Of a stretch of 64,000 nucleotides of DNA, positions 675 through 64,000 are shown one piece after another. This DNA comes from a virus. The notes beneath the pieces are model-generated. The model did no database searches. It was not told the origin of the DNA and saw nothing but the letters and a program-made list of their open reading frames with translations. Both the position numbers and the translations under genes were made by a program. Location: the IMG/VR virus record IMGVR_UViG_3300025669_002431; one strand, 5' to 3'. How positions within the stretch are numbered: position 1 is the first letter of the stretch; each line of letters opens with the position of its first letter.

Positions 675-763
675 TGGTGTGGGTGGTAGAATTCGAATCT
701 ACTAGGTCCGTTAGGACACAGGGTTTACAGCCCTGTCCAGCCCTCCATCTCTGGCGCACCCAC
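675..763 (-). tRNA. tRNA-Tyr (anticodon GTA), bacterial type with long variable arm, CCA encoded
   Basis: Hand-folded: acceptor GTGGGTG/CACCCAC, T-arm GTAGA-TTCGAAT-TCTAC, anticodon loop CTGTAAA, 16-nt variable stem-loop, 3' ACCA. Confidence 0.75.
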
Positions 764-3994: not shown

Positions 3995-4085
3995 AAGATA
4001 AACTATATGGGATTTGAACCCACATTTCCGGATTGCGGTCCGGTGCCCTACCAATTAGACGAATAGCCGCTATACATATTGTCTC
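3995..4085 (-). pseudogene. degenerate tRNA-like sequence (pseudo-tRNA)
   Basis: Has a T-arm GTGGG-TTCAAAT-CCCAT and a D-loop AATTGGTA motif. Acceptor and anticodon stems do not pair canonically and no CCA is present. Confidence 0.35.
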
Positions 4086-5486: not shown

Positions 5487-5984
5487 CTACATAGCAAAGC
5501 AATCGGAACACTCGTCTTCAGTATCTTTGATTACTTTTTTGATATGTTGGTTTGCCAATTCAATTTGGCTATCTATATGCCTGATAATCTCAAGGTGATC
5601 GAACGCAATATCATTTAATGGAATTTCGTTTCCATCGACGAGATCTACTGGATCAACCCAGCGTAGTTCTGATGCATCATCTCCTGCTTCCCAATTGTAA
5701 TCTTTAGGGTCAATCATTACGCAGTGAACTATTGTTATAGCATGCCCTCTTGGATCACGTAATGGTGTACCGACAGTAGTGTATTGATCTTTATAAGTAA
5801 ATTTAATAGCTGCACCAGTTTCTTCTAGTACTTCTCTCGAAATTGCTTCATGTAGGTCTTCACCTTCATCTACAAACCCACCAGGAAGAGCCCACTTACC
5901 ATGTTCAGTTTCACCCTTTCTCTTGACCATCAACACCCTAAGTCTATCAACTGAATCAAATATTACTGCATCTACTGTAACCAT
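5487..5984 (-). CDS. NUDIX hydrolase
   Basis: Nudix box GGFVDEGEDLHEAISREVLEETGA. The start is probably MVTVDAV (5984) rather than the ORF-track Met at 6065. Confidence 0.85.
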   Translation of the reverse strand: MVTVDAVIFDSVDRLRVLMVKRKGETEHGKWALPGGFVDEGEDLHEAISREVLEETGAAIKFTYKDQYTTVGTPLRDPRGHAITIVHCVMIDPKDYNWEAGDDASELRWVDPVDLVDGNEIPLNDIAFDHLEIIRHIDSQIELANQHIKKVIKDTEDECSDCFAM

Positions 5985-6330
5985 AGGTCTCGGATAATCG
6001 TAGTGGAATCCGCCCAATAATTGGCCGACGCACTGGGATTCGCTCACCCCCCATCCTGATCTCATCTCGCGTAGGTCTTGGGGATCTACCTATTGTTGGT
6101 TGCCAATCATCATCTAGTCCTGTCTCCTCAGGCTCATCAACATCATCACTAATATCTTCAGATACCTCTTCAATAGTAAGCAGTTCATATTCTTTAAATC
6201 TATGAGTATGTCCGCTACCCATTCTAACAACATTATGACTTTCTCTTTTCTCAATAGATTCAATGCTATTACAGTTTATATATTTTGTAGGTTCTTCTTC
6301 CTCTACTTTAAACCACCAACCATTTCCCAT
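5956..6330 (-). CDS. hypothetical acidic protein
   Basis: 124-aa ORF with an Asp/Glu-rich middle. The 3' end overlaps the alternative NUDIX start. Confidence 0.35.
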
Positions 6331-6667
6331 CTCTGTATTCCTCTACAATAATGTTGCTTGGACTCATTGATGCATCAACCTTTTTCTCAATTTCTGCCAT
6401 AGTAACTGCCTGACGAGATACAGTAATGTGCACCCAGTCTTTAAACTTTTTACTTTCACCTAATCTTTTGAATGCTATTTTCTTATTAGCATGTTGTGAC
6501 CGTTGATTCTGGGCCACTGCAACTGCTCCACTTGGAGGATGAGTTATTCTTACAGCGCTATCTGTTTTATTTCTATGCTGTCCTCCAGGACCACTACCAC
6601 GAAATGTATCAATTACAAAATCTTTTTTTGTGAGAGTAAGGACTTTCTTTCTGACCTTAGTATGCAC
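6308..6667 (-). CDS. arfB: ArfB/ICT1-like peptidyl-tRNA hydrolase (class-I release factor GGQ domain)
   Basis: [20 protein letters not shown] closely matches the GGQ motif region of E. coli ArfB (YaeJ). Small size (119 aa). Confidence 0.78.
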
Positions 6668-6669
6668 AT

Positions 6670-7053
6670 CTATCCCTTTATTGTTTTATGAAACGTCTTT
6701 TCATCCCATACAAATGGTACTAAAAACGAACCAGGAATCATCTCTTGCATATATCTTGAACCTGCTGGATTCAATGAATGTATAATTACTTTAGCATCAA
6801 CTGGATTCTTATTTATATATCTAGCAACCTCAGCACCTGTATTTGTTTCAGCACTATTTACAAATACTTGATCACCTAGGTCATGATCACCTAGGTCATG
6901 ATCTAGTAATATTAAATCATATTCTTTTTCTTTTAATAGACGAATTGCTTCTCTAGCAGTATCTACATATTCACCGACCCAACCATGCTCTAGTATTCTT
7001 TGTTTAAATTGTCTAATTCTATTACTGTTGTCTTCTAAAACCAATACTTTCAT
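6670..7053 (-). CDS. stand-alone response-regulator receiver (CheY-like REC) domain
   Basis: MKVLVLEDN...[12 protein letters not shown] matches the CheY fold and acidic pocket. Contains a [10 protein letters not shown] tandem duplication. Confidence 0.8.
6870..6899. repeat. 15-bp perfect in-frame tandem duplication (gatcacctaggtcat x2) inside the REC gene
   Basis: Visible directly in the sequence. It duplicates DHDLG immediately after the predicted phospho-acceptor Asp. Confidence 0.9.
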
Positions 7054-7073
7054 TATTCTTCCTTAAATAGTAA

Positions 7074-7102
7074 GGAGAGGAAGACATAACACCTCCCTCT
7101 CC
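7074..7102 (-). terminator. GC-rich hairpin downstream of the MVP-like gene
   Basis: Stem GGAGAGG / CCTCTCC lies between the MVP stop (7123) and the REC RBS. The U-tract is weak. Confidence 0.3.
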
Positions 7103-7122
7103 ACCACACTCTCGAACTCTAC

Positions 7123-21251: not shown

Positions 21252-21431
21252 TTAATCATAGAATTCAGAAAATAACGAGAAATTTTCTTTACTTGCCCCA
21301 CACTCAGGACACACCCAATCACACGGGAGATCATGGTAGTCTGTTCCGGGGGCTATAGCTTCTGCTGGATCCCCTTCACTTGGAGAATATTCCTGTCCAC
21401 ATAATTCGCAGAAGTAGGAATTACCACTCAT
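21252..21431 (-). CDS. rubredoxin (59 aa)
   Basis: Not in the ORF track (below 60 aa). MSGNSYFCELCGQEY...PGTDYHDLPCDWVCPECGASKENF has both CxxCG and CPxCG knuckles. Confidence 0.7.
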   Translation of the reverse strand: MSGNSYFCELCGQEYSPSEGDPAEAIAPGTDYHDLPCDWVCPECGASKENFSLFSEFYD

Positions 21432-22940: not shown

Positions 22941-23252
22941 CTAAGTTGTAACTAAGACTTCTTCTTTCTTATCTTCATCTGCTATAGGAGCAAATGCTTC
23001 TGCACCATGTGCAAAATATTTGACTAGGTTCTCAGCTGTTTGAGGAATTGTGAAATATTTTCCTTTTGGTAAAAATACCTTACATGTGGGTCTACCTTTA
23101 TCCATGCCATTGTCTACTATGTTCTCAATATGTAAAATATTTATTACTACTATTTTTCCATTAATATCTGTGAGAGTTATTAGAAATCGTTTAATTGAAT
23201 TATCTATTACATCTTGAAAAAGCCTAAATGCTTCCTGTTGTGTCAATGACAA
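22941..23252 (-). CDS. hypothetical protein
   Basis: 103-aa minus-strand ORF. Confidence 0.3.
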   Translation of the reverse strand: MSLTQQEAFRLFQDVIDNSIKRFLITLTDINGKIVVINILHIENIVDNGMDKGRPTCKVFLPKGKYFTIPQTAENLVKYFAHGAEAFAPIADEDKKEEVLVTT

Positions 23253-23913
23253 CTTTCTTCTCCTTCTTTGCTATGTTTGTAGGTTTCCATTTTTTTGACC
23301 AATGAATATCAGTTTGTACATGATTTTCTCTGACGAACTTTCCAATATTCAATTGAAATTCTGAGAATGGAAATGCTGAATAAGACCTCACAACTACTCC
23401 TTCTTTCGGTCCTCCGAACATAGAAGGGTATTTCATCTGTTCTAATATAAGTCCCTTTAATTGGTTCTCATCTTTTACGAATCCCTCATATAATACCGGA
23501 GGAGTAGGAACATTCAACATTGTAGCATAATTGGATATTACATCCCAGCTTAAAAATACATTATTTTCTACTACAGATAACAAGAATAAGAAGTGAGGTA
23601 AAGACGTATATTCTATACTATGAATTGCATACATATTTTCAAAGTAAAACCATAAATTACTATAATCTCCTTCACATCCAAATGTTTTACCAGCCCAATT
23701 TTTTACTATGTTGAATGATGGATGAGTTGCTTTTCCACCGCGAGATCTAGCATACACTTCGCAGTCCACTATCCCTGTATTAGATCCATCCATCTTTTCT
23801 GTAATTATTATTTTTCTTCCAATAAATGGAGCAGATGATACTAGTTTCCTATTTGGATTTCCAGGAGAAAATGGTAGCCTCAACGTCCTAGGATATTTGT
23901 CTATGTTAATCAT
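23224..23913 (-). CDS. ATP-dependent RNA ligase (RNA_ligase/Rnl5-DRB0094-like nucleotidyltransferase)
   Basis: Motif I ITEKMDGSN (KxDG), motif IV KEGVVVRS, motif V KFVREN. Size and spacing fit minimal RNA ligases. Confidence 0.6.
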   Translation of the reverse strand: MINIDKYPRTLRLPFSPGNPNRKLVSSAPFIGRKIIITEKMDGSNTGIVDCEVYARSRGGKATHPSFNIVKNWAGKTFGCEGDYSNLWFYFENMYAIHSIEYTSLPHFLFLLSVVENNVFLSWDVISNYATMLNVPTPPVLYEGFVKDENQLKGLILEQMKYPSMFGGPKEGVVVRSYSAFPFSEFQLNIGKFVRENHVQTDIHWSKKWKPTNIAKKEKKVVIDTTGSI

Positions 23914-24293
23914 TATATAGATTCCGTTCTAATTACTAAATCCCTTACTCTATGTTTCATATCTTGTATTACTTCAGAATTTCGTCTTAGTTGTTTGATC
24001 TTTTTTTCATGTACTATATAATCAGCATATGCGTCATATTCTTGTTTGGATACTATATTGTGTTTTAATGCTACATCTATAGGTAATTCAATTTCCCAAT
24101 ATATGTCATCCCAGCTATATAACTCATAATAGAAAAAGCGACCATCGGAAAATAGATAAAATATTTTTGCTGCGTCTTCTTCCATAATAACCGCAGTTCT
24201 ATCTATAAAGTTATCAAATCCAATTAATCTTCTTTCTCGAAGTCGTATATAATAGTCATCCTTTGTGAACTCAAATTTATCCACCAGTATCAA
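23913..24293 (-). CDS. hypothetical protein
   Basis: 126-aa ORF. Start overlaps the upstream stop. Confidence 0.35.
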   Translation of the reverse strand: MILVDKFEFTKDDYYIRLRERRLIGFDNFIDRTAVIMEEDAAKIFYLFSDGRFFYYELYSWDDIYWEIELPIDVALKHNIVSKQEYDAYADYIVHEKKIKQLRRNSEVIQDMKHRVRDLVIRTESI

Positions 24294-28858: not shown

Positions 28859-29452
28859 TTACCATCTCTTTTTATTAAATTCTTTATTACGAATTCTTAC
28901 TGAATCTTTGTTTAGAGATCCATAATTCTCAGTTAAAGAATGGCAATTTGGACACAATAAATCTAAATTATGTTCTTTAGAGTTTCTAGCATCCCCATCT
29001 ATATGATGTATTGATAATGGAATATTTCCAGATGTTGAATTTATTTCACTCCATCCACATCTACTACATTTATTATCATATTTCTCAAACATATACCTTC
29101 TAATAAATTTTAATAGTGTATAATCTTTTCCGGTATATCCAGGAATTAATTCGCTTTTCCAATTTTTGATTCTTATTTTATATTGATGTTCTCTACAGCA
29201 TTCTTGAGAACAGTATTTTTTACCCCTATTTTTAATAATATTTTTACATTCTATACATACATATTCAATTGAATTTTTTAAATGGGGCCCTCTTTTACAA
29301 TTTTTTAATTTTTCTGATGTTCTATTATTATATAAAGCTGAACAACTACTATTGCAGAATTTTTTCTTCCCACTTAATATTTTATTACACTCTAAACATG
29401 TATGAGTCATACATGATTCATAATGCCTAGAATAATTTGAGGCACAATACAT
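28859..29452 (-). CDS. HNH homing endonuclease with Cys-rich repeats (paralog family 1)
   Basis: HNH motif LSIHHIDGDARNSKEHNLDLLCPNCHSLTENYG. FCNSSCSALYNNR-type repeats. Confidence 0.8.
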   Translation of the reverse strand: MYCASNYSRHYESCMTHTCLECNKILSGKKKFCNSSCSALYNNRTSEKLKNCKRGPHLKNSIEYVCIECKNIIKNRGKKYCSQECCREHQYKIRIKNWKSELIPGYTGKDYTLLKFIRRYMFEKYDNKCSRCGWSEINSTSGNIPLSIHHIDGDARNSKEHNLDLLCPNCHSLTENYGSLNKDSVRIRNKEFNKKRW

Positions 29453-29453
29453 T

Positions 29454-29530
29454 GCGCAAGAAGTTATTAACAGTCTTATCTAGCTGATACAAAAAGAAAT
29501 GTGCTCACAACACATTTCTTTTTTTGTTTC
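29454..29530 (+). repeat. 76-nt conserved element, copy 2 (hairpin + T9), abutting the HNH start
   Basis: gcgcaagaagttattaacag...gaaatgtg-ctcacaa-cacatttc-ttttttttt. About 85% identical to 1639..1714. Confidence 0.7.
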
Positions 29531-30038
29531 ATTTTCCCTTAAAGTCGGGTAGACAATTCCCATTATCGGGTTTCTTACTCATAATATCTTTTAGTTGATC
29601 AAAACTAATAGGTGTAAACTTATTACTATCAACTCCAACGTCATGACTCTTTCCAATGGATGGAAGAGTACCATGACTGTGTCCATATAGATGCCAACTG
29701 TTACGATGAGAATTATCCCATACTCTCATAGCATAATGACATAGTATTAACCTTCTACCTTCATGTCTTAAAATAATTATCTGAGGCAATCTTGGAAATA
29801 TTTGATTAATATCTTTATCGTGATTTCCTTGACAAAATATAATTTTACCATTTAACCTAAGAAGCATTTGATTTGTTTTAATTGTAGAATTATAAAAGCT
29901 AAAATCTCCAAGATGATATACAGTATCTCCAGATGATACAACACTGTTCCAATTCTTTACCATAGTTTCATCCATCTCTTCTTTGGATTTAAATGGACGA
30001 TTACAATACTTTATAATATTTTTATGCGAAAAATTCAA
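29529..30038 (-). CDS. calcineurin-like metallophosphoesterase
   Basis: MPP motifs GDxxY/GDF (HLGDFSFY), GNHD and GHSHG. Confidence 0.8.
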   Translation of the reverse strand: MNFSHKNIIKYCNRPFKSKEEMDETMVKNWNSVVSSGDTVYHLGDFSFYNSTIKTNQMLLRLNGKIIFCQGNHDKDINQIFPRLPQIIILRHEGRRLILCHYAMRVWDNSHRNSWHLYGHSHGTLPSIGKSHDVGVDSNKFTPISFDQLKDIMSKKPDNGNCLPDFKGK

Positions 30039-30119
30039 TGGGTGTCAGCTGTAAAAAATATATTACCACTGACACCAATTCCTCCTCTTATGTTCTTACC
30101 CATCTTTCTCCTTGTATCG

Positions 30120-30812
30120 CTATAAACTAAAAAATGTCCAACCATCAACTCGATCATTTACGAATTGAATGCTTATAAACCCGCTACTTTCTCCTCTAAA
30201 CATATTCCCAGTCCACTCCCAGTTCATTGTACGATGAATATCACCATCCCCCCAATTCATTTCCATACCTTTCTTACCATGTACACCCATTATTCTTACT
30301 ACTTGATTATATGTCATTCCTTTTTTAAGTTTATTGACATATGATTGTGGATTGAATGATGAGTTATTTCTTTTAGATGGTTCGTACTGTGGTGTAACCG
30401 ATTTAGTATGTTTTGGTTTAGATGACATGTCATCTATCATTGATGGTGGCTTGACTATTTTTTTAGGTAATTCTGCTGGTATTGGTGCTGGTGTAGTGGA
30501 TGTTGGTGGTTGTCCTATTTGAGATGTATTATTAACATCAACCATTATACATGTCGTTACAAAAATACTAAATATTAAAATCAATCCTCCACATCCTATT
30601 CTACCTATATTCTTCCTAAATACATCAAATTTAGCAGTCCATGTAAGATCAGGTACTTCAATTTCATGATTGCAGTGTCTACATTTTCCAGTCGTATTAG
30701 CATATTGATCTGGAATATTAAGATAATGTCCACAATTATGACAAGTGAAATTAATCATAAATGTTGTTTCCTTTCTAATATCTTTTTCTATTGTCCGGTC
30801 TTCCATTCCCAT
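30120..30812 (-). CDS. membrane protein with N-terminal zinc ribbon and Pro/Thr-rich linker
   Basis: CHNCGHY...CRHCNHE ribbon, one TM (GGLILIFSIFVTTCIMV), then a PPTSTTPAPIPAELP linker and a C-terminal domain. Confidence 0.4.
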   Translation of the reverse strand: MGMEDRTIEKDIRKETTFMINFTCHNCGHYLNIPDQYANTTGKCRHCNHEIEVPDLTWTAKFDVFRKNIGRIGCGGLILIFSIFVTTCIMVDVNNTSQIGQPPTSTTPAPIPAELPKKIVKPPSMIDDMSSKPKHTKSVTPQYEPSKRNNSSFNPQSYVNKLKKGMTYNQVVRIMGVHGKKGMEMNWGDGDIHRTMNWEWTGNMFRGESSGFISIQFVNDRVDGWTFFSL

Positions 30813-31542
30813 TATTTAATATCCCATAATTTTCAGTTAGAGAATGACAATTTGGACATAACATCCTAAGATTATCTGGCTTATTATTTTTCCAGTTACC
30901 ATCTATATGATCTAAATGAATAGGAACTTTACCAGTGATTTGATGGATTTTATCCCAACTACACATAGAACATTTTTTTCCATCTCTTTCTATGATATAA
31001 TTTCTTACAAATGTAGCGGTTTGAACTTTACCATACATACCATTAGTTTCACCAGATATCCATTTTTCTACATTTTTTATATATTTATTATATCCAGCGC
31101 ATTTATGAGAACAAAACTTTCGAGGTCGCCCCTTAAATTTTATTCCACATTGTTGACATATATAATTTCCATCTTCATCAGAATGTATTTTATTTTTACT
31201 TATCGGTCCTCTTCGGCATGATTTAAGTCCTTCAGAATTTTTATTATTATATATTCCAGCACATTTATGAGAACAAAACTTTGCTCTATTATCTTTTGAT
31301 GTTAGTTTTTCACCACACTCTAAACAGAAGTTCTCTCGTTTACATGCATTTAAATGTTTTTTATGATTTGCTTTTAATATTTTTTTATTACAATTTTCAC
31401 ATATTTTGAATCTATTTTCAGTTATTCTACTAGTTTTTTTCTTTATTTCTGGGCAAGAAGACCAGTGTTTTGAACAACACCATTTACCATTTTTTAATTG
31501 ATATTTACCTTCATTCCCACAACCATAATTACATAAAATCAT
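30775..31542 (-). CDS. HNH homing endonuclease with Cys-rich repeats (paralog family 1)
   Basis: HNH motif IHLDHIDGNWKNNKPDNLRMLCPNCHSLTENYG. FCSHKCAGIYNNK repeats. Confidence 0.8.
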   Translation of the reverse strand: MILCNYGCGNEGKYQLKNGKWCCSKHWSSCPEIKKKTSRITENRFKICENCNKKILKANHKKHLNACKRENFCLECGEKLTSKDNRAKFCSHKCAGIYNNKNSEGLKSCRRGPISKNKIHSDEDGNYICQQCGIKFKGRPRKFCSHKCAGYNKYIKNVEKWISGETNGMYGKVQTATFVRNYIIERDGKKCSMCSWDKIHQITGKVPIHLDHIDGNWKNNKPDNLRMLCPNCHSLTENYGILNNGNGRPDNRKRY

Positions 31543-32246: not shown

Positions 32247-32963
32247 TTATGTCCGAAGCCAACACCAAGTTACACTCTCTCGTATGCGATGAGATATCGA
32301 GTCTAAACATTTGATTCTTGCATCTCCAATTTTTCCTTCTGCATAATAATGCCAATGCCCACAATATATTAAACTGGGTTTATTTTCTTGTACTATATAT
32401 GATAACGCCTCTCTAGACGGATCTTCTACTTCAATACAATCATCTAATGGTGTAAATTCAGTAGGGGTAGTATGACAGATTAAAATGTCTATTTTTTCTT
32501 TTGTCAATTTAACTAGATCCATGTAACTGATAGTTTCTTCTGGAAACCAATCATGTCCTAGTATTCTTATATCTGCGTCAATTGATGTAGCACCACCCAT
32601 AAATAATACATTTCTTCCATCTGGAAGATATAGGACAGTATTTCTTGGAGCATAAAAAATATTTTTCTCAACCTCTAAGTCGCCTATTTTTAAACTATTG
32701 AGTCCCCACCAGTGTTCATGGTTTCCGCCACAGAATACAATTTCTGCACCGCGAAGATTTATAGCACTCATAGGAGGACCACCAAAATAATCAGTTTGTG
32801 GCCAGTATCCGAAATCACCGACTTGAAGTATTAATCTGGGTCTTTCTTGTTTTATTAGTTTGTTGAGCATTGGCCAATGACCGTGAACATCTCCAACAAT
32901 CATTATCCCATCACTTATATCTGTCCTAAAAATTGTTCTGCCTAGATCATTAGAGATCTTCAT
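32247..32963 (-). CDS. calcineurin-like metallophosphoesterase
   Basis: MPP motifs GDVHG, VGDFG, GGNHE and a His-rich C-terminus. Confidence 0.8.
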   Translation of the reverse strand: MKISNDLGRTIFRTDISDGIMIVGDVHGHWPMLNKLIKQERPRLILQVGDFGYWPQTDYFGGPPMSAINLRGAEIVFCGGNHEHWWGLNSLKIGDLEVEKNIFYAPRNTVLYLPDGRNVLFMGGATSIDADIRILGHDWFPEETISYMDLVKLTKEKIDILICHTTPTEFTPLDDCIEVEDPSREALSYIVQENKPSLIYCGHWHYYAEGKIGDARIKCLDSISHRIRESVTWCWLRT

Positions 32964-35599: not shown

Positions 35600-36184
35600 T
35601 CAGGTGGTCTGCACTAGTGGTTCGGCGTGATCTACCATGTATTCTTGGAACCTTTTCATGGAAGTTTCCTTGGTATACGAGGGAGTATTATAAGGAGTTT
35701 GCACCAAATATGCGTCTCCACCATGTGCTCTAAATCGGGATACATTGCGTCTAAAGTCATCTATTAGTATAGTTCCTTTGCTCGCACAGAAGTGTTTTGG
35801 CTTTCCTATGAAGTATGGAACGTCTGGAGTATGTTTGCTCATCCATCTTATTTTTCCGTTTATACATCTTGCTGAATGTATGGGATCATCTGAATCAACT
35901 CTTGCTGTTAGTATACATACTCTCTCATATAGTACTCTTTCAAGTGCAAGAAAATCTAAAATATCCTGAGCGTATTCTGTCATGGGTAAATTCGCCCACC
36001 AATCCTCAGTCATCATTTCTATAAATTCTTTTCGCGATACGCCAGCAAGAGATTCTAATTGTACATCATTTATAATTTTTATGCGAACGTTTCTATCTTG
36101 AATATCGAGTAATTTTATACTTGCACCGAAAAAATCAACAAGTACTCCGTCTAAATCCAAAAAGATAGTTCTGTATGGTCTCAT
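35600..36184 (-). CDS. HAD-superfamily phosphatase, 5'(3')-deoxyribonucleotidase-like
   Basis: HAD motif I IFLDLDGVLVDF and motif IV ILIDDF. Size and pattern resemble the NT5C family. Confidence 0.6.
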   Translation of the reverse strand: MRPYRTIFLDLDGVLVDFFGASIKLLDIQDRNVRIKIINDVQLESLAGVSRKEFIEMMTEDWWANLPMTEYAQDILDFLALERVLYERVCILTARVDSDDPIHSARCINGKIRWMSKHTPDVPYFIGKPKHFCASKGTILIDDFRRNVSRFRAHGGDAYLVQTPYNTPSYTKETSMKRFQEYMVDHAEPLVQTT

Positions 36185-37128
36185 TAGTTTACCTTCCTAT
36201 TCAGAACCTTTAAGGCTTTCTTTATTGAGCCTAAAGGAACTGAGTTTGTTGCTGTGTCAATATTTAATGTGTATAATTTGTAAGGAAAATATCGAGTATA
36301 TTCTTTGATTTTATTCATCATAATACAACGATCCCAACCTAGTATTTCTCCAGCTAACCACATAGGACCACTGTTTATTCCAATGAAGTATTTACACTCT
36401 GCTATTTTATTCATCATGTCTATAATAGTTCCCCCTGATTCCCTCATGGTATTTCCATTCATCCATTTAGGAATAGGTTGGACACAATAATGTGGCAGCA
36501 TAGGAACATTCATATGAATTTCAAATGGATCATATCCCATCGCTTTAACATCATTCCATACTATTTCGGGACCACCATCCATTAAACTTTTTTTACTATA
36601 AGCAGTATTACCAATGAAATGAATGCCCACCATATTAGAATTTTTAACAGGTTTTATTTTAGGTCTCCAGTTACCCCAATCAACATCTAATCCAAATTCT
36701 AATTTCGCTACATTTTGAAACTTCTTCAGCTTAGAATTCATGGGCTGTTCTGGAAACTTTAAAACAAATATATAATCATATTCTTTAATATATGAACTAT
36801 CATATTTTTCTTTAAATGTATCTTTGAATACAGAAGGTCTATCGTGTTTTCCTTTTGTCTTATTTAAAATCACAATATCTTCGTGTAATCCTTTGACTTG
36901 GATCATGGGGTGACAACCTATATTGAACTCCCAATTAGGATATTTTTTCTTAAGTACTTCATATATCTGGAAGAACATTATGAAGTCGCCAAGCCCATGA
37001 TCGAAAACAAAGAGAGCTTTCCCTGATTTTTTCCTGTTAAGATAAGAACAGACAGTGGCTCTCTTTGAAACTATATTCTCTATTAGCATATTATTTCCAA
37101 ACGTCGGCGTCTTCCTCACTTGTTTCAT
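36184..37128 (-). CDS. putative glycosyltransferase (GT9/heptosyltransferase-like N-terminus)
   Basis: ALFVFDHGLGDFIMFFQIYEVLKKKYPNWEFNI resembles the GT9 signature. Weak. Confidence 0.35.
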   Translation of the reverse strand: MKQVRKTPTFGNNMLIENIVSKRATVCSYLNRKKSGKALFVFDHGLGDFIMFFQIYEVLKKKYPNWEFNIGCHPMIQVKGLHEDIVILNKTKGKHDRPSVFKDTFKEKYDSSYIKEYDYIFVLKFPEQPMNSKLKKFQNVAKLEFGLDVDWGNWRPKIKPVKNSNMVGIHFIGNTAYSKKSLMDGGPEIVWNDVKAMGYDPFEIHMNVPMLPHYCVQPIPKWMNGNTMRESGGTIIDMMNKIAECKYFIGINSGPMWLAGEILGWDRCIMMNKIKEYTRYFPYKLYTLNIDTATNSVPLGSIKKALKVLNRKVN

Positions 37129-39376
37129 ACTGTTCTATTATCTCAGTTCTAAGCACGTCCTCTACATCATTATCCCATGCTTTTCTAAATTCAGCATTTT
37201 CTCTGTAATATTTAATCGCTTCCTTCTGTCTAAACTTCTGAGTAGGATACGATTCTAATGTACACCAAGCGGCAGCTTTAATTCTTTTTGTTCTCTTTAG
37301 TAGTTCATAATTTGTCCAGAAGTTTGAGAAGCCTCTTTCGAAACTAACTATCATGGATATGTCAATGTTTGGAGAAAATAACTTATTCTTTACAGCCTTT
37401 CCTGTGAGCTTAACTCCATTGAATCCATACTCTCCTGCTACATCTCCAGTAGGCCTGAAGAAAAAAAGTTGTGTAGATGCGAATAGATTAGCATTACCTC
37501 CTGGAATATTATACGCTCCAAGAAATTTTAGTTTATTAAATCCTTTGAATTTACCAACCTGCATACTATCTCTAAGTTGATTCAGAGCGAACAAACATAT
37601 ATTATAATTTGCCATCTTATCAGAATATTTTTTAAGATATTTAGTAAGGGCACTTGCTTGTATACTTAATTGTTCTGTATTAGTTGTTACCTCAGCTTCA
37701 GTAGGAGTACTCGCTATACTATCCCATACTATAATGGATGGTACATCTAGTATATCTTTGTGTTCTTCCTTATATGCACATAACCCCTCAACGATTGAGA
37801 ATACCTTTTCGATTGTAATTCCATTTTGTGGATTTATCTCTGGATATTTAACTCCAAGATCTGTAAGTCTTTTTTTAGTAGTTGTATTTTCTGAATCTAA
37901 GTATACTGATATAAATTTTCCAGGCCATTTCCTTTGACCCGAAGATATAACCTTCGCAGCCAATGTAGAGTTATGAGTAACTATGAACTCGTCAGTTATA
38001 TATGACCCATTTGGATTATTAACTTCTATGCACTGAGCTTCTGATTTTTCAACAAACTTAACCGATTTTATACATTTCGTTATGGTTCTTTTTCTTATAT
38101 TTGATAATAACTTTGATTTTTCTTTTACTCTTACTGGGGGAAAACAATTTGGTAGGTTTATATCTAGTTGAAATGATTTAAAAATATTCCCATTATATTT
38201 TGTTTTTTTATTATATATTTTTATTCTTCCTCCCAATGATCTAATTATAAATGCTACGTCATCTATCAATCGTTTAGATATTGAATAAAAACACATTCTA
38301 TTTGTTTTTTCTATAGATCCATCAGTATCACATAACCCTTGTAAGATTGATAATCTATCATCAATTGAACTAAATTTATATGAATCTGGTATAAATTTAT
38401 CTTTAGAACTTTTTCCCAATAATCCTAATTCATTTAAAATAACTTTCATCTCATTGCGTAAAATATCTTTTTTGCCTTGACCTCTTCTATTCATTCTATT
38501 AAATATATATCCGTATTTTGAGCCATTAATTACCTCTAATTTTATATTATCTGGGAGGGTTTTTTCACAAATATTTATAATTTCTTTATATTTATCAGAT
38601 ACTGTAAGAGATATTTTATCATTTCGACTATACATAGATCCATCTCCCAAAAGGCACCCCAATAAATATGGGTCAATCGGTAAATTATTTTTATCAAAAT
38701 TAATAGCATTATTAACAGGTATGGTCCATTTTTTATCGCTAGTATGTTGGTTATTTATATCTTCAAAAATCTCTTCTAATCGTCTAACTTTAAATTCTGA
38801 TTTATAATCTTTTTTACATATCCAAAGATGGTCTAACGTGGATCTAGCTTTGGTTCCGTCGGTAAATTTTATTTCATATATATCCTTTTCCCCCTGTGGA
38901 GATACATTTGTAATATTACAAATTTCCCCTCTAGAATCAAATACATTATTTCCTATTTTCATTTCTCCCATAGTCTTCCAACCACTAGGTGTTAAAATTT
39001 TAGAATACAATGGTTGTGCTTTTCCACAACCAGGAGGCCCAACAAATTGTACTAATCCTGTCGAGACTCCTCCACCAAGTACAGTATCCAATAGATCTAT
39101 ACCAGTAGGAATAGTTGTCTTATTTTCTTTTGATTCAGTAAAGTCATATCCTTTTTTAAGGAAAGAAGAAAAGTCTTCAAATAAGTCTTTAGATTTTTCT
39201 AATTCACCTTCTGTCAGCTTGACATCCGAATATTTACTAGTTATTAATGTATCTTCTTCTATTGATGCTGCCGCTTCCGTTGGGACCTGAGGTAGCAAAG
39301 TTTTCTTTTTCTTTTTCTCCTGCACTGCAGGAATTGATTCTTCTTCAACAAGTTTATCCATTATCTTCCTTTCCAA
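37091..39376 (-). CDS. RecA/UvsX-family recombinase interrupted by a LAGLIDADG intein in the Walker A loop
   Basis: The extein reads LGGGVSTGLVQFVGPPGCGK-STLAAKVIS...VYLDSE, a RecA-like P-loop. The insert has LAGLIDADG motifs (LLGCLLGDGSM, LQGLCDTDGSIE) and ends THN|S. Confidence 0.7.
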   Translation of the reverse strand: MERKIMDKLVEEESIPAVQEKKKKKTLLPQVPTEAAASIEEDTLITSKYSDVKLTEGELEKSKDLFEDFSSFLKKGYDFTESKENKTTIPTGIDLLDTVLGGGVSTGLVQFVGPPGCGKAQPLYSKILTPSGWKTMGEMKIGNNVFDSRGEICNITNVSPQGEKDIYEIKFTDGTKARSTLDHLWICKKDYKSEFKVRRLEEIFEDINNQHTSDKKWTIPVNNAINFDKNNLPIDPYLLGCLLGDGSMYSRNDKISLTVSDKYKEIINICEKTLPDNIKLEVINGSKYGYIFNRMNRRGQGKKDILRNEMKVILNELGLLGKSSKDKFIPDSYKFSSIDDRLSILQGLCDTDGSIEKTNRMCFYSISKRLIDDVAFIIRSLGGRIKIYNKKTKYNGNIFKSFQLDINLPNCFPPVRVKEKSKLLSNIRKRTITKCIKSVKFVEKSEAQCIEVNNPNGSYITDEFIVTHNSTLAAKVISSGQRKWPGKFISVYLDSENTTTKKRLTDLGVKYPEINPQNGITIEKVFSIVEGLCAYKEEHKDILDVPSIIVWDSIASTPTEAEVTTNTEQLSIQASALTKYLKKYSDKMANYNICLFALNQLRDSMQVGKFKGFNKLKFLGAYNIPGGNANLFASTQLFFFRPTGDVAGEYGFNGVKLTGKAVKNKLFSPNIDISMIVSFERGFSNFWTNYELLKRTKRIKAAAWCTLESYPTQKFRQKEAIKYYRENAEFRKAWDNDVEDVLRTEIIEQYETSEEDADVWK
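37970..39019 (-). mobile_element. intein with LAGLIDADG homing endonuclease (in the RecA-like gene)
   Basis: About 350 aa with block A-like ILTPSGWKTM..., two LAGLIDADG motifs and C-terminal ...IVTHN followed by Ser. Confidence 0.6.
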
Positions 39377-39740
39377 TCATAGTCGTAGTCTTAGTCTTAT
39401 TTCTATCTAATTCTTCAATTATTTTGACAACCTCGCGAATGTCAACTTCATCACCTTCCTTCTCATCTCCCATAACTTTTCTTCTCACTTCGAACTCGCT
39501 CTTAAAAGAACCTTCGATTGCTCTGTTGACATCAAGTCTTACTTTTTGGAACTCTACTATTGTTTTTATTTTATTTTCTAGTAGATATCTTTTAGAGTAA
39601 TCTTTAGATTCAGGAAATATTGCTTCCATCTTACCATCTATTAGTTTAAGACGATCACGCATCGTGAATAGGTCTACTCTATTTAAAGATATACCATCTA
39701 TTATGTCAAATAGTTCTTTATTTTTTTCTTTCTTAGCCAT
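39354..39740 (-). CDS. hypothetical protein
   Basis: 128-aa ORF. Confidence 0.35.
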   Translation of the reverse strand: MAKKEKNKELFDIIDGISLNRVDLFTMRDRLKLIDGKMEAIFPESKDYSKRYLLENKIKTIVEFQKVRLDVNRAIEGSFKSEFEVRRKVMGDEKEGDEVDIREVVKIIEELDRNKTKTTTMIGKEDNG

Positions 39741-39920
39741 TACTCTAAAATTACCTTTAGTTCGCCTGTATTATTTAATGTATGTAGTGTAGGAGCATCC
39801 ATCATAGATGCATCTTGAAGGACTTCGTCGATAGATTGCATAGGAGTTTCAATTGCTTCTTCGGAACTTTCCAGCTTCGTTTTGTCTTCCTTTTCTTCTA
39901 CCTCTAGGCCATCCAATTCA

Positions 39921-40598
39921 CTATATACTTTTTGGTTTTTTTTCTTCATCAGAATCTCCAACATTTTTTATACTATGTTCATCCTTTGCAGCATTATAAT
40001 ACGATTCAGCAAAAGCTGTACATGTTTCTTTTATTTCTTCAGATTGTTCTATTTTATCTGCATGAAAAGGAATGTCCAATTCTAATTTATTATTATCTGT
40101 TATATTTGAACTGTAATCAGAAGATGGATTCTTAATAGGATATATCCCTATACATTTAGTAGAATATTCTACAATTCTTCCATTTGGTTGAGTTGTCCAA
40201 TAATACACATCCCCCTTATAATTTATAGAGGTGTCTTCATTATTACTAGCAAATGATCTTGCTCTTATTGTTTCATTATACCAAGCAGATATTATATTAT
40301 AAATTGGCAATCCAGTTAATTCTAAATGCACTGAATATAATTCATTATCAATTACTCTAGCAGAATTTGATAAATCATTTTTATCAACCTCTATATATCC
40401 ACCGGGTAATATAAATGATAAATTAGTCGATGCAAGCATTCTCTCAGCGTCTGAGATTAATTTTATTTCTTTTGTATTATTTAAAACGCAATTTGGTAAC
40501 GTCCATCTGGTGAAAAAGAATCCAGTTATATATGGATCTACTGCATGATCACATCCACCAAACGGTCTATTTACTTTACCTTTTTTATCTTCTTCCAT
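39921..40598 (-). CDS. hypothetical protein
   Basis: 225-aa ORF. Confidence 0.4.
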   Translation of the reverse strand: MEEDKKGKVNRPFGGCDHAVDPYITGFFFTRWTLPNCVLNNTKEIKLISDAERMLASTNLSFILPGGYIEVDKNDLSNSARVIDNELYSVHLELTGLPIYNIISAWYNETIRARSFASNNEDTSINYKGDVYYWTTQPNGRIVEYSTKCIGIYPIKNPSSDYSSNITDNNKLELDIPFHADKIEQSEEIKETCTAFAESYYNAAKDEHSIKNVGDSDEEKKPKSI

Positions 40599-40710
40599 TT
40601 TTCTCTCCTATTATAACCAACACTACTTCCACTTCCTTTATTTCTCTGTAAACAACTAATAGCTAACGCAGACAAGCCGCGCTAGCTAATAGTCGTTTAT
40701 TTTAACTAGA

Positions 40711-40923
40711 TTAACTATGTGCTATAAAATCACCAACAATATCAGTTAGTTCTAAACTTGAGACATGAATGTCTGGTGTCATATATCCATCGTGGGTATA
40801 TGTAGCAGCATAAGTCTCTACTTCAGTAATATTGTTAAATGTATTTCCATAACAATCTTGCCATAAGCCATCGGCCCATGTTATATTTAATGCTAATCCT
40901 GTACTAGCAGCTATAATCATCAT
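40711..40923 (-). CDS. small secreted protein (paralog pair A)
   Basis: Signal-like N-terminus MMIIAASTGLALN. Shares ...NTFNNITEVETY... with the 46-aa ORF at 40978..41118. Confidence 0.4.
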   Translation of the reverse strand: MMIIAASTGLALNITWADGLWQDCYGNTFNNITEVETYAATYTHDGYMTPDIHVSSLELTDIVGDFIAHS

Positions 40924-40977
40924 GATGTATTTCCTCCTAAATGTTAAGTACTTTGTATAATTATATAATTATATTCT

Positions 40978-41118
40978 TTACGCAGGTTCTGCTCTTGCTG
41001 TGAGATATTCTTGAACTTCACTAAGGTTATTGTATGTAGTTCCACCGTTTACATAAAACATACCATCAATAAAGTTAATTCCTACTTCATTTCCATTTCC
41101 GTCTACGAATAGTGCCAT
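40978..41118 (-). CDS. small protein (46 aa; paralog pair B)
   Basis: Not in the ORF track. MALFVDGNGNEVGINFIDGMFYVNGGTTYNNLSEVQEYLTARAEPA. Confidence 0.35.
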   Translation of the reverse strand: MALFVDGNGNEVGINFIDGMFYVNGGTTYNNLSEVQEYLTARAEPA

Positions 41119-41132
41119 GACACATCCTCCTT

Positions 41133-42029
41133 TTATTTCTTTCCTATTTTAGAACATTTCCAACCATTTTTATGGCTTTTCTGTCGACCGAATGCCACAT
41201 GATTCATTCCAACTACGTTTAAATTATTTTCTTCACAAAATTTAGATAAGTTATCTACAATATATATTTTTCCAGTTGGATCAATTATTTTATATTTATT
41301 TTTTGTTCCATATGTATTTCCTTTATTAATATCAGATATTTTGTTCCTTAACTCATCATTATTCCATGCAGATTTTATCTTGTTTTTGTGTTCTAATCTC
41401 TTTTCATCACTTCTATTTTTCCAAATTTCTGTCTGTATTTTGGATATCTTTTTCTTTACTTCAGGTCTATTTAGAGAATCAGTAATTTCTTTTATTCTTT
41501 TACTTCTATTTTCTTCAATAGACCAAAAATTCTTTAAACCTCTAGAAACTTTTTCTTTATATTCTTTGTTTTTATTTAACTCAGTAAAAATTTTACTATG
41601 GTTTTTTCTTCTCTCTTTTGACCATTTTTGATTTATTGGTGTCTCTCCACCATCTGTTAAATTTGTGAGAGGACCATTTCCTAAATCATATCTGCCTATA
41701 TTTTTTATTATATGTTTTTCTTCATTAAATGCATTTAATTTATTCATCTCAATTTTTAATTTAATTATAATAGGTTCAAGATCATACCTAAAAATCTTTC
41801 TAATTTTGTTAAGTTTTAATTGGTTTCTTTTAGAAAAACATCGACTTGCTTCAGATAGATGGGATTTATATCTCCGACCATGACCTGCGCCAACATAAAA
41901 TGGTTCATATAATAATCCAAATCCCAAATTAGGATAAACATATTTTCCAGGTTTTCGGGGATCTAGATAAATATATACATAATAATTATTTTGATTTTTT
42001 TTCTTTTTGTTTTTTGGAGTGGAGGGCAT
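41133..42029 (-). CDS. GIY-YIG homing endonuclease
   Basis: GIY-YIG core YYVYIYLDP...FYVGAGHGRRYKSH followed by Lys-rich NUMOD-like DNA-binding repeats. Confidence 0.78.
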   Translation of the reverse strand: MPSTPKNKKKKNQNNYYVYIYLDPRKPGKYVYPNLGFGLLYEPFYVGAGHGRRYKSHLSEASRCFSKRNQLKLNKIRKIFRYDLEPIIIKLKIEMNKLNAFNEEKHIIKNIGRYDLGNGPLTNLTDGGETPINQKWSKERRKNHSKIFTELNKNKEYKEKVSRGLKNFWSIEENRSKRIKEITDSLNRPEVKKKISKIQTEIWKNRSDEKRLEHKNKIKSAWNNDELRNKISDINKGNTYGTKNKYKIIDPTGKIYIVDNLSKFCEENNLNVVGMNHVAFGRQKSHKNGWKCSKIGKK

Positions 42030-43050
42030 AAATTAAATTTCCTGTTGCTACAGCCGCTAATGGGTCTTTTGCTCTTCTTATATCAGAGACATTATATGGG
42101 AATATATCTCTATAGTTTTCATCGAAAACTTTTGTAAAACATTCTATAAACCCATTGGGTAAAGATGTTCCACCCGATACAATGATCGGAATATCTTCTC
42201 CTATTTCGAGAGCATCAGAAGATTTTTCAAATTCTTTACAAAATGTTTTTAATATATATTCTATCATATCTTTATAGAAGAAAACCAGACACTCTAATGC
42301 TCGTTTCTCTGCTTTTTTCTTTGATATAATAGGATTATCTAAATCTAATTTACTCTCTTTTAATCTTGTAACTCTACTTACAGGAACATTAATAGAATCA
42401 GACACTTGTTTATCAATCCAGTCTCCTCCTCTCTTGATAGCAAATGCTAGACTCATAATTCCTCTGTAAGAAAACGCTACATTAATTAAACCACATCCAC
42501 AACTGATCCCTATTCCGCTAAAGTTCGTATCTGCACACTCTGAAAAAATTATCCCCATTCCTTCATTTAAAGGTTTAGCATCATATCCGATAGAATCTAA
42601 AACCTTTGAGAACACCTGTTCATGATACAGCACAGGAGGATTGTCAGCGTCTACTGTGTCTGCTGGCACTGAGTATACACAATAGCCTCTTTGTCCCTTA
42701 GGAGGCGTTTTGACTAGCTTCTTAGCCATCACAGTGAGTATATCTATAGCATCTATGTCCTTGCTGGAGATGACGCCTCCTTCCATAGGACGTCTTGGAG
42801 TAATACCAAATATCTGGGAAAATCTAAAACAATCTTCACCAATAATAAAGACTCTTTCCACATCGTCCTCATTACTAACTATGTAATCTAAATCTGTATT
42901 TTCTAATTCTTCTATTGCTATAACATCAGTATCAATCTCTGAGAACATATTTCTTACTGTATTTATAGTAATTTTACCTTCAGTTGCCTGACAGGCGGAA
43001 ACTTGATTCATTGTACCTAAATCATACCCATAATAATGTTTTATATCCAT
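41986..43050 (-). CDS. actin-fold ATPase (ParM/MreB/FtsA-like)
   Basis: ASKHA motifs: phosphate-1 YGYDLGTMNQVSA, phosphate-2 GIGISCGCGLINVAF, adenosine IIVSGGTSLPNGF. Confidence 0.6.
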   Translation of the reverse strand: MDIKHYYGYDLGTMNQVSACQATEGKITINTVRNMFSEIDTDVIAIEELENTDLDYIVSNEDDVERVFIIGEDCFRFSQIFGITPRRPMEGGVISSKDIDAIDILTVMAKKLVKTPPKGQRGYCVYSVPADTVDADNPPVLYHEQVFSKVLDSIGYDAKPLNEGMGIIFSECADTNFSGIGISCGCGLINVAFSYRGIMSLAFAIKRGGDWIDKQVSDSINVPVSRVTRLKESKLDLDNPIISKKKAEKRALECLVFFYKDMIEYILKTFCKEFEKSSDALEIGEDIPIIVSGGTSLPNGFIECFTKVFDENYRDIFPYNVSDIRRAKDPLAAVATGNLIYALHSKKQKEKKSK

Positions 43051-43052
43051 GC

Positions 43053-43418
43053 TTACCTTTCTAATTCTCCTAGTTTATCTAATTGTGATGCAATATCAAC
43101 AGTCTTTGTTCGTTTACTAACTTTGTTTGTACGTGAAGTAATATCTGATATATCTGGCTCAGGTATATACGTAGGACTAGAGCCCTTCTTTAATTTGTCC
43201 TCATTTTTTTCATTTCCTTTTCCAGTAGATGTGTATGTTACTGATGGATCTTTCATTATTCCTACTATTTCCATTAATCTATTATTTATTAATGTTAACT
43301 GATCCATTATATCGCCAGCGTCAAATGTACTAACAGATATAGGTGGGTGTTTATCTTTTTCTAAGATTCGCAACCTACTCTTTATGTGTCTTACGTCTTC
43401 TTGATGTCTTAGTGTCAT
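43053..43418 (-). CDS. hypothetical protein
   Basis: 121-aa ORF. Confidence 0.35.
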   Translation of the reverse strand: MTLRHQEDVRHIKSRLRILEKDKHPPISVSTFDAGDIMDQLTLINNRLMEIVGIMKDPSVTYTSTGKGNEKNEDKLKKGSSPTYIPEPDISDITSRTNKVSKRTKTVDIASQLDKLGELER

Positions 43419-43419
43419 T

Positions 43420-43926
43420 TTAAATATACTCTATGTTGACTTCTCTACACTTTAATAGTTCATCGTAAATATTTACCATATGGTGCTCTACAGTCATCCT
43501 ATATGACCTATCTACTCCATCTCTAACCCCATCTTCTACCAAATAATCATTATTTATTATTGTTTTAAAATAAATTTTGTCATATGACTCAATATGATGT
43601 TTGGCCATCTCTATCATAGCCAACGCTAATTCATCATCTCCACCACCATTTATTCTAGTATATGCTATTGAATCAATGATAGTTCTATCACATATAACAA
43701 TATCATAATTTGCTTCTAAAAATAATTCATGTTGTAGTTGTGAACAAAATATCCACATTTGACTTTTTGAGTTTCCATCTTTATTAATTTTAAATGGGGA
43801 GTGTCTAGCGTTCTCCATAAAAATACCTACAGATTTAGTAGGGTGTATCATTTTCATCTCATGTGCTTTTTCTAATACAGATGTGGTTTTCCCAACCGAA
43901 TGTGAACCCGAAAATGCTATACGCAT
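43420..43926 (-). CDS. P-loop NTPase / small kinase-like protein
   Basis: Walker A AFSGSHSVGKTT at the N-terminus and Walker B-like DIVICDRT. Family not assignable by eye. Confidence 0.45.
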   Translation of the reverse strand: MRIAFSGSHSVGKTTSVLEKAHEMKMIHPTKSVGIFMENARHSPFKINKDGNSKSQMWIFCSQLQHELFLEANYDIVICDRTIIDSIAYTRINGGGDDELALAMIEMAKHHIESYDKIYFKTIINNDYLVEDGVRDGVDRSYRMTVEHHMVNIYDELLKCREVNIEYI

Positions 43927-62992: not shown

Positions 62993-62994
62993 AA

Positions 62995-63738: not shown

Positions 63739-64000
63739 AATTCCACCTTCCTATATGCCCAGTTTGCCCCATTCATTCGTATATCTGGTGGTTTTCCAAA
63801 AGATTCATGTATAGCTTTCACAACCAAAGGCCAACCCTTAAGATTATAATCATGTCCACCAATCATACCAGTTGGTTTAATTTTTGGAAGCCAAATGGAT
63901 ATATCTTCACGAACTGATTCATAGGTGTGGCATCCATCTATATAAACAAAGTCCAAAGATTTATCATCAAACTTATCTACAACTAAATTACTCTTAGAAC
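63735..64000 (-). CDS. class I SAM-dependent (O-)methyltransferase, 3' part; gene continues beyond the window end
   Basis: FVYIDGCHTYESVREDISIWLPKIKPTGMIGGHDY matches the C-terminal half of TylF/CmcI-type MTases. The 5' end is truncated by the window. Confidence 0.5.
   Translation of the reverse strand, partial: SKSNLVVDKFDDKSLDFVYIDGCHTYESVREDISIWLPKIKPTGMIGGHDYNLKGWPLVVKAIHESFGKPPDIRMNGANWAYRKVEL

Follow-up and report, generated by a model that had tools for sequence, protein, structure and literature searches.

The question raised by the gene at positions 23224..23913 (minus strand) of IMG/VR virus record IMGVR_UViG_3300025669_002431 is which kind of ligase it encodes, and whether that enzyme belongs to a pathway for the repair of broken RNA. 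The stretch of DNA analysed here (the window, 64,000 nucleotides) is a piece of a very large, uncultured phage; nearly all its genes lie on the minus strand, its GC content is around 33% and it holds 10-11 tRNA genes. An earlier note, made from the sequence alone, had described the gene product as a minimal RNA ligase resembling Rnl5/DRB0094, and had joined it with other genes of the window in a dispersed toolkit for healing and sealing RNA ends. Our analysis, in which the whole window was annotated by Pfam on concatenated translations, makes it near certain that the protein is a member of the Deinococcus LigB/DR_B0100 ligase family. As to its function, we lean somewhat towards a stand-alone ligase domain of the LigB type whose task is to seal breaks in nucleic acid, in the phage most likely RNA, probably together with a partner; a role in RNA repair, which we infer, has a roughly even chance of being correct.

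The open reading frame (ORF) starts with ATG, encodes 229 aa and consists of an adenylyltransferase domain alone, of the DR_B0100/LigB type. The description as a minimal RNA_ligase protein was borne out by the Pfam profile PF09414, which matched with 70 bits (cutoff 27; E=3.6e-19) over profile positions 2-170 of 171, the match beginning at residue 34; two PHROG families also matched, one of them bearing the label RNA ligase. No OB domain was matched by Pfam, and NCBIfam assigned the protein to no family, with no match to TIGR02306 or TIGR02307. The three motifs that had been pointed out before, KMDGS, EGVVVR and KFVREN, could all be read directly from the sequence. The context of motif I, TEKMDGSN, comprises residues 38-45 (23779..23802), and within it K40-M-D-G (23785..23796, minus strand) contains K40, the predicted AMP-accepting lysine; K40, D42 and G43 are invariant across 237 aligned family members. 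So are E92, H98 and Y102 in the motif III region, YFE92NMYAIH98SIEY102 (23608..23646, minus strand). Motif IV, E171-G-V-V-V-R176 (23386..23403, minus strand), was identified from sequence reading and from the alignment, and motif V with a family-specific tail, KFVRENHVQTDIHW, occupies residues 192-205 (23299..23340, minus strand) and includes KFVREN (192-197). In this tail K192, V194, R195, H198, H204 and W205 are each at least 98% conserved in the 237-member alignment, and all are kept in the phage protein, which ends 24 residues further on. Both family signatures, K-x-V-R-x-x-H-V-Q-T-D-x-H-W and, after motif III, H-S-I-x-Y, are complete. Taken over the whole length, the protein retains K40, D42, G43, R56, E92, H98, Y102, E171, G172, R176, K192, R195, H198, H204 and W205.

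Comparison with D. radiodurans DR_B0100 by BLASTP gave 37% identity over 219 aa (E=5e-42), and the motif I lysine is residue 40 in either protein. When plasmids were searched by tblastn, the top match was the Deinococcus radiodurans megaplasmid MP1, at a locus annotated, in this order, as an RNA ligase family protein (210 aa), a TIGR02452 protein and a 413-aa AAA ATPase, with an RNA ligase (ATP) 4.2 kb further. A review of Deinococcus names the genes of this locus DR_B0100 (LigB/DdrP), DR_B0099 (PARG), DR_B0098 (HD-Pnk) and DR_B0094 (DraRnl) (PMC6300522). A protein search with the phage ligase returned 377 homologs at E<=1e-5; among the 120 listed, nearly all were of 190-256 aa with PF09414 only, and a few had an N-terminal HNH domain. 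Some homologs carry Joint Genome Institute (JGI) names or PF09511 matches of the tRNA-ligase type. The best relatives are no more than 45% identical, and among phages homologs of the protein were confined to those of 235-735 kb; a megablast search with 12 kb around the gene gave no match among GenBank phages.

The structure predicted by AlphaFold2 (AF2) from 47 homologs (predicted local distance difference test, pLDDT, 88.9; predicted template modelling score, pTM, 0.87) has the ligase fold. In a Foldseek search of the PDB, ATP-dependent RNA ligases of every clade appeared at a similar distance (template modelling score, TM, 0.43-0.54; identity 10-20%), including Aquifex 3qwu, archaeal Rnl3, Naegleria Rnl5, fungal Trl1 and T4 Rnl2 and Rnl1. 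The top folds were all RNA ligases (Rnl3, Rnl5, Trl1, Rnl2), and at E<=0.001 RNA ligases dominated, with one viral DNA ligase also present. A single-sequence search against PDB sequences found no match even at E=10, and the family sequence profile matched only one solved protein, the adenylyltransferase domain of Candida glabrata Trl1 (9qw7; E=4.4e-5), from motif III through motif IV. Assignment by fold to Rnl2, Rnl3, Rnl5 or Rnl6 was rejected, all being equally distant. As far as the model goes, the ligase fold is confirmed and no existing structural clade can claim the protein.

The label Rnl5/DRB0094-like fits instead the second ligase of the window, whose existence the earlier note had recognised. 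This protein (11658..12746, minus strand, 362 aa) combines an N-terminal OB fold, matched by the PHA02142 OB-fold family (PF21189), with the PF09414 adenylyltransferase domain, and scores 152.9 bits against TIGR02306 (cutoff 151.15), the Rnl5/DraRnl (DRB0094) type. The two ligases had been called unrelated, which holds at the level of pairwise similarity (E=1.1) but not beyond it, as both belong to the same Pfam family and share a fold. Judged by these matches, the phage carries homologs of both Deinococcus ligases, since the gene at 23224..23913 matches DR_B0100 and that at 11658..12746 the DRB0094 type. An Rnl5-type ligase was also found within 5 kb of a family member in one other viral locus (L138), and the two types are neighbours in Deinococcus as well.

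The surroundings of the family in other genomes point to what its members may do. Relatives of the phage protein are encoded in at least 521 stretches of a bacterial and archaeal collection with one genome per species, and neighbourhoods were studied in the 80 best of these loci, which come from Bacteroidota, Myxococcota, Acidobacteriota, Spirochaetia, Paenibacillus, Brevibacillus, Deinococcus and others. Neighbouring ORFs were clustered, and a hidden Markov model (HMM) was built for the main neighbour, a protein with HD and AAA_33 Pfam domains, in reversed order in Firmicutes. An HD-Pnk-like ORF lay within 5 kb of the ligase in 60 of the 80 loci, usually directly downstream and overlapping the ligase stop codon. 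This is the arrangement described for Runella HD-Pnk by the Shuman laboratory, who reported a putative ATP-dependent ligase with its 3' end overlapping the HD-Pnk ORF, in a gene cluster that also contains Tpt1 (PMC6097658).

At least 326 IMG/VR contigs, many of them of 130-530 kb, carry the family. Neighbours within 6 kb were counted in 80 viral loci, by clustering or HMM. An HD-Pnk neighbour was uncommon there (7/80), and the genes found were a T4 Rnl1-type ligase (13 loci), a T4-type Pnkp (7-8), RtcB, NAPRTase and a calcineurin-like phosphoesterase (7 each), an NT5C-like HAD protein (6-7), an aq_1665-like metallophosphoesterase (5-6) and a CCA-adding enzyme with an HD domain (3). At least one core RNA-repair gene (Rnl1, Pnkp, RtcB or HD-type) was present in 25 of the 80 loci, and tRNA genes in 17. 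In bacteria, then, the family keeps company with end-healing genes, and in phages with genes of RNA repair. In four viral loci (L128, L129, L133 and L134) a second ligase paralog of ~250 aa, with the variant N-terminal motif LPRTLHIxGS, was observed ~4 kb upstream of the first.

Biochemical work on relatives is available for DR_B0100, which forms an AMP adduct that is abolished in the K40A mutant, K40 being the adenylated lysine (PMC1997131). In the reading that we favour, the phage protein would likewise react with ATP to give ligase-AMP at K40, the AMP would be passed to a 5'-phosphate end, and this end would then be sealed to the 3'-OH end of the broken nucleic acid. The substrate in the phage would most likely be host-cleaved tRNA or other RNA, and the protein would complement the Rnl5-type enzyme at 11658..12746, the two ligases being non-redundant. 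It probably needs a partner or a special end structure, since it has no nucleic-acid-binding domain of its own and the tested relatives do not seal alone. The 10-11 tRNA genes of the window, together with a cluster of cREC, GGQ-factor and Rnl5 genes described below, fit the published picture of RNA repair in jumbo phages, which often possess several ATP-dependent RNA ligases that are not redundant, HNH-fused 'Rnl2 family' forms among them, together with kinases, with HAD, calcineurin-like, HD and cREC phosphoesterases and with tRNA genes (Iyer et al., 2021; PMC7824862). The concept of multi-ligase RNA repair in jumbo phages was thus already published in 2021.

Several observations weigh against this reading. 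No condition tried allowed DR_B0100 on its own to ligate DNA or RNA (PMC1997131), and the Runella enzyme forms ligase-AMP but sealed no tested 3'-OH/5'-PO4 DNA or RNA substrate (PMC6097658). DR_B0100 is radiation-induced, and DNA ligation was reported for it by one study, only in the presence of DR_B0098 and PprA (reviewed in PMC6300522). In the window, the immediate neighbours of the gene are small ORFs of no assigned function, without homologs in other ligase loci: the overlapping ORFs 22941..23252 and 23913..24293 had no Pfam match, and no BLAST match among the proteins of the 80 viral ligase loci. HMMs for HD-Pnk, T4-type Pnkp, Rnl1 and RtcB run with filters off against all window ORFs found nothing (best value for HD-Pnk, E=1.5), and among the Pfam calls for the 10 kb that follow the window on its right there is no kinase, Pnk, HD-Pnk, Pnkp, Rnl1 or RtcB. 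Finally, H12, D20, D21 and G91, each 96-97% conserved in the family (G91 in 96% of members), are lost in the phage protein, which could mean loss of function.

Of the alternatives, the one that survives best, unlikely as we consider it, is that the protein is a DNA-repair ligase, as proposed for Deinococcus LigB, working with the LigD-type 3'-phosphoesterase, LigA, the flap nuclease and RecA of the window. DNA is a possible substrate because DR_B0100, which heads its radiation-induced operon, has been reported to ligate DNA with the helper proteins just mentioned (PMC6300522); HD-Pnk, moreover, heals ends of DNA as well as of RNA (PMC6097658), and the window is rich in genes of DNA metabolism, among them those for the LigD-type phosphoesterase, LigA, RecA, a PDDEXK nuclease and a 5'-3' exonuclease. 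This has to be set against the failure of DR_B0100 alone to ligate either nucleic acid (PMC1997131) and against the phenotypes of DR_B0100 mutants, which conflict between studies (reviewed in PMC6300522). The recurrent neighbours of the family in phages are RNA-repair genes and tRNAs, not DNA-repair genes, and the phage already has, in LigA, a full-length NAD-dependent DNA ligase.

A second alternative concerns the N-terminal region. The divergent family motif of the phage protein, KYPRTLRLPFSPGNPN (23851..23898, minus strand; family consensus KYPRTxHLPxSPGxxxDD), keeps K-Y-P-R-T and has R in place of H12, P in place of D20 and N in place of D21, and at position 91 there is F; R12, P20, N21 and F91 are each unique to this protein among the 237 aligned sequences. 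These residues are not errors, since six contigs from several samples carry the same sequence without a difference. They could mean that the phage copy is decaying or repurposed, either as an adenylyltransferase that does not seal or as an inactive remnant cut off from HD-Pnk, and the distance to the best relatives, the lack of a healing partner nearby and the frameshift in one of the metallophosphoesterase genes of the window (see below) would be in line with this. We hold it to be rather improbable, since the reading frame is intact, all catalytic residues are kept and the model is confident, and since the same sequence recurs on the six contigs and the start codon shares bases with the stop codon of the ORF upstream (ATAATGA), an arrangement like that of translationally coupled operons.

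The preferred reading, that of a sealing enzyme with a partner, leads us to consider instead that partner or end specificity has probably changed in the phage, because HD-Pnk is absent here and the changes in its N-terminal family motif are found in no other aligned sequence. Seven other sequences of the alignment have Tyr at the place of His12, and the four of them that are from bacterial loci all lie in loci without HD-Pnk, which hints that the N-terminal family motif tracks the partner. This His-to-Tyr subclade (KYPRTPYWPYSP) was found in Spirochaetia, Binatia and Thermoanaerobaculia (loci L043, L050, L057 and L069); a possible alternative partner is seen in L050, a 439-aa protein without a Pfam match whose gene follows and overlaps that of the ligase. 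A bolder proposal, and one to which we give little credence, is that DR_B0100-type ligases, the phage copy included, are not ordinary sealers of 3'-OH/5'-phosphate ends and need a non-standard end or an obligate protein partner. One candidate for such an end, with fungal Trl1 as the parallel, is a 2'-phosphate that the invariant His98 and the Arg195/His198/His204 tail would recognise; in Trl1 two arginines of the C-terminal domain read the 2'-phosphate, and a His lies next to motif III (PMC11404444). The end may also be related to ADP-ribose, a group which DR_B0099 strips from RNA (PMC11833690). The phage protein may then have switched its partner or the end that it recognises.

The pathway drawn up in the earlier note would unite the ligase, two metallophosphoesterases, the LigD-type phosphoesterase, a P-loop kinase and a HAD phosphatase in the dispersed healing and sealing of RNA. 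The domains it named all exist (Metallophos_2, Metallophos, LigD_N, P-loop AAA_28 and NT5C-like HAD in Pfam), all the genes lie on one strand, and calcineurin-like and HAD phosphatases are listed among the RNA-repair components of jumbo phages (PMC7824862). The stand-alone LigD-type 3'-phosphoesterase at 47268..47714 (minus strand; PF13298 LigD_N, E=6e-15; TIGR02777) is genuine: HHYDLR, SWALPK and GEFGEG motifs are present and its PDB relatives 3p4h, 3p43 and 3n9b (E=1.8e-11 to 1.7e-8) include stand-alone archaeal proteins. As a member of its family by sequence, it could remove 3'-phosphates or 3'-ribonucleotides. No match was found by tblastn at E<=1e-3 in 50,697 phage genomes, and it appears to be a rare gene for a phage; it sits among DNA-metabolism genes, a position that does not favour a part in RNA repair.

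The claim of two calcineurin-like metallophosphoesterases fared unevenly, the domains being present, with homologs beside ligases for the first only, and the first gene being frameshifted. Metallophosphoesterase 1 (29529..30103, minus strand) resembles Aquifex aq_1665, a protein without assigned function, and matches an HMM of ligase-adjacent phage homologs (E=2e-35). The Metallophos_2 match (E=2.9e-8) was obtained on ORF 29529..30038, which itself lacks metal-binding motif I; the first 22 codons (30038..30103), with an AAGGAG ribosome-binding site and an ADTH motif I, run into a stop at TGA (30035..30037), and the remainder, from 30038, lies in the -1 frame. Since five independent assemblies share the identical 100-nt stretch across the frameshift, it is not an error of assembly, and the gene is either a pseudogene or subject to programmed frameshifting. 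Reading the TGA as a sense codon was rejected, as the frame closes again within a few codons. Metallophosphoesterase 2 (32247..32963, minus strand; PF00149 Metallophos, E=6.9e-15) is of a generic phage type, with homologs in 320 phage records annotated merely as metallophosphoesterase, and gave E=0.82 against the HMM of ligase-adjacent metallophosphoesterases, so that no linkage to the ligase is supported. Neither protein grouped with Mre11/SbcD or with Ser/Thr phosphatases, a grouping that the earlier note had counted against its pathway. The NT5C-like HAD phosphatase (35600..36184, minus strand; PF06941, E=6e-7) matches an HMM of HAD proteins adjoining the ligase family in other phages (E=2e-12), and is by this association a candidate 3'-phosphatase.

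The P-loop protein (43420..43926, minus strand; AAA_28, E=1.6e-9) had been taken for the 5' kinase. It groups instead with thymidylate and deoxynucleoside kinases, an outcome which the earlier note had itself counted against its pathway. The PHROG label is 'thymidylate kinase', the structural model has a pLDDT of 87.5 with all of its top 50 Foldseek PDB matches being thymidylate or deoxynucleoside kinases, and D80-R81, an Asp-Arg pair that we take to be a thymidylate-kinase motif, is invariant among its homologs. A homolog search returned 11 matches only, none with an informative name, and the genes around homologs include either Volactin, RecA and DnaB or a DNA ligase and a DNA polymerase. 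With this model and replication-module context, and with no match to a Pnk HMM, the protein was excluded as the polynucleotide kinase of a repair pathway. The gene order of actin-like Volactin, RecA and thymidylate-kinase-like AAA_28 (37091..43926 in the window) is conserved in another large-phage contig, and a further AAA_28 homolog adjoins an ATP-dependent DNA ligase and DNA polymerase A (loci L176 and L177).

What stands of the toolkit is the ligases and several possible 3'-end healers, candidates by sequence (the LigD-type phosphoesterase, cREC, HAD and the metallophosphoesterases); the route from a 5'-OH/2',3'-cyclic-phosphate break to sealed RNA could not be reconstructed, because no 5'-OH kinase was found in the window or in the Pfam calls for the next 10 kb. 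Pfam scans of the window also found no Trl1-type kinase and no 2H phosphoesterase. With a thymidylate-kinase-like protein where the kinase should be, a frameshift in one metallophosphoesterase gene, no ligase linkage for the other, and distances of 6-24 kb filled by unrelated genes and homing endonucleases, a single pathway is quite unlikely, even though homologs of metallophosphoesterase 1 and of the HAD protein lie directly beside the ligase family in other phages.

A more coherent candidate for a compact RNA-damage-response cluster than the toolkit proposed around 23224..23913 is found at 5487..12746, where the Rnl5-type ligase is located. Its members all lie on the minus strand: a NUDIX protein (5487..6065), a GGQ release-factor domain protein of PrfH/ArfB-like type (6308..6667), a cREC domain protein (6670..7053), a 914-aa major-vault-protein-like protein with vault shoulder and Vault_3 domains (7123..9867), a weak GNAT match (9933..10364), an esterase (10385..11233) and a tRNA-Asp (11258..11332), besides the ligase itself. 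The GGQ protein (PF00472, E=8.6e-21) is a candidate ribosome-rescue factor; its translation shows the GGQ motif, PrfH (TIGR03072) comes closest among NCBIfam models but stays below cutoff, and PrfH-type factors have been proposed to couple ribosome rescue with RNA repair (PMC6514570). The cREC protein (PF20274, E=1.5e-13) has a predicted cyclic-phosphate-processing receiver domain. In jumbo phages, where a linkage of cREC to RNA ligases is reported, the domain has been proposed to process cyclic phosphates (PMC7824862), and by this published prediction the protein is a candidate 2',3'-cyclic-phosphate healing enzyme. The vault-like gene lies in an island of high GC (0.44-0.51 over 6001..10000, against ~0.33 elsewhere), which suggests recent acquisition from a GC-richer genome.

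Besides the genes already discussed, the window encodes Cpn10, ClpP, RecA, a class II ribonucleotide reductase, a flap nuclease, Volactin, dCMP deaminase and DHFR, along with many homing endonucleases and sugar-modifying enzymes. RecA (37091..39376) and the class II ribonucleotide reductase (55405..58635) each contain an intein carrying a LAGLIDADG endonuclease. There are at least four paralogous HNH-type homing endonuclease genes (711..1493, 14165..14848, 28859..29452 and 30775..31542), a GIY-YIG gene (41133..42029) and a DUF7487 protein (50793..52634). At 21252..21431 a 59-aa ORF is a rubredoxin (PF00301) in the precomputed annotation of a matching contig. The tools for tRNA detection disagree: ARAGORN gives an 89-nt tRNA-Tyr at 675..763 with no Rfam call, Rfam a tRNA at 3999..4069 (41.8 bits) with no ARAGORN call, and ARAGORN assigns the tRNA at 14952..15030 the unusual anticodon ATA (Tyr). 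From 61721 to 63956 and for 10 kb past the right end, seen on an 80-kb contig (locus L172), there are glycosyltransferases, sulfotransferases, methyltransferases, a hexapeptide acyltransferase and an ATP-grasp enzyme, a gene cluster which suggests that the phage makes an elaborate glycan or modifies a surface or its DNA; the 10 kb outside the window held nothing but genes of glycan modification.

Beyond routine annotation, this work identifies the protein with the LigB/DR_B0100 family, pairs both Deinococcus ligase types in one phage, describes the unique loss of the N-terminal His and Asp-Asp and puts numbers on the linkage to HD-Pnk. The family is widespread (the bacterial and archaeal stretches counted above and hundreds of large-phage contigs) and tightly linked to end-healing enzymes, and two laboratories have seen self-adenylylation, not sealing, in its members. 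A phage copy that lives apart from HD-Pnk and has an altered N-terminal motif is a natural variant that could help to reveal the residues and partners by which the substrate is defined. The lessons for annotation are that a P-loop protein resembling thymidylate kinase is not to be listed as a polynucleotide kinase, that scattered superfamily-level domain matches are no ground for inferring an RNA-repair pathway, and that "Rnl5/DRB0094-like" is a label for the ligase at 11658..12746 only.

Among known systems, T4 Pnkp/Rnl1, bacterial Pnkp-Hen1 and the jumbo-phage repertoire of Iyer et al. (2021) resemble the window in many tRNA genes, more than one ATP-dependent ligase and candidate phosphoesterases. 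The window differs from them in that searches of it brought up no homolog of Rnl1 or RtcB and no 5'-OH polynucleotide kinase, and the candidates are spread over ~40 kb; no Hen1 methyltransferase was identifiable in general Pfam scans of the window, no Hen1-specific model having been run. With T4 Rnl2 and the broad 'Rnl2 family' of Iyer et al. (2021) the phage ligase shares PF09414 and an N terminus that opens with a K-Y motif, and its HNH-fused relatives P0101 and P0117 match the jumbo-phage 'Rnl2 family' forms of that work (PMC7824862); unlike T4 Rnl2, it is without the C-terminal helical domain needed for nick sealing, is 10-12% identical to T4 Rnl2 structures and has no TIGR02307 match. DraRnl and NgrRnl (Rnl5; TIGR02306, DRB0094) have in common with it PF09414 and the nucleotidyltransferase fold, NgrRnl being among the top structural matches (TM ~0.5), whereas the N-terminal OB domain that defines Rnl5 is missing and TIGR02306 does not match. 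The likeness to the ligase domain of fungal Trl1 (Rnl6) is a local profile match that covers the His beside motif III and motif IV; it is weak, and the phage protein has neither the C-terminal domain with the two arginines that read the 2'-phosphate nor a fused kinase/cyclic phosphodiesterase.

The closest parallel is to DR_B0100 and to the Runella slithyformis ligase encoded upstream of HD-Pnk. From these the enzyme is set apart by being phage-borne, with no HD-Pnk, PARG or Tpt1 gene adjoining it, and by R and P-N in place of the family's N-terminal His and Asp-Asp. It has in common with both that it consists of the adenylyltransferase domain only, in a protein of 210-230 aa, and with DR_B0100 it shares the position of K40, the residues of motifs I, III, IV and V and the K-x-V-R-x-x-H-V-Q-T-D-x-H-W tail.

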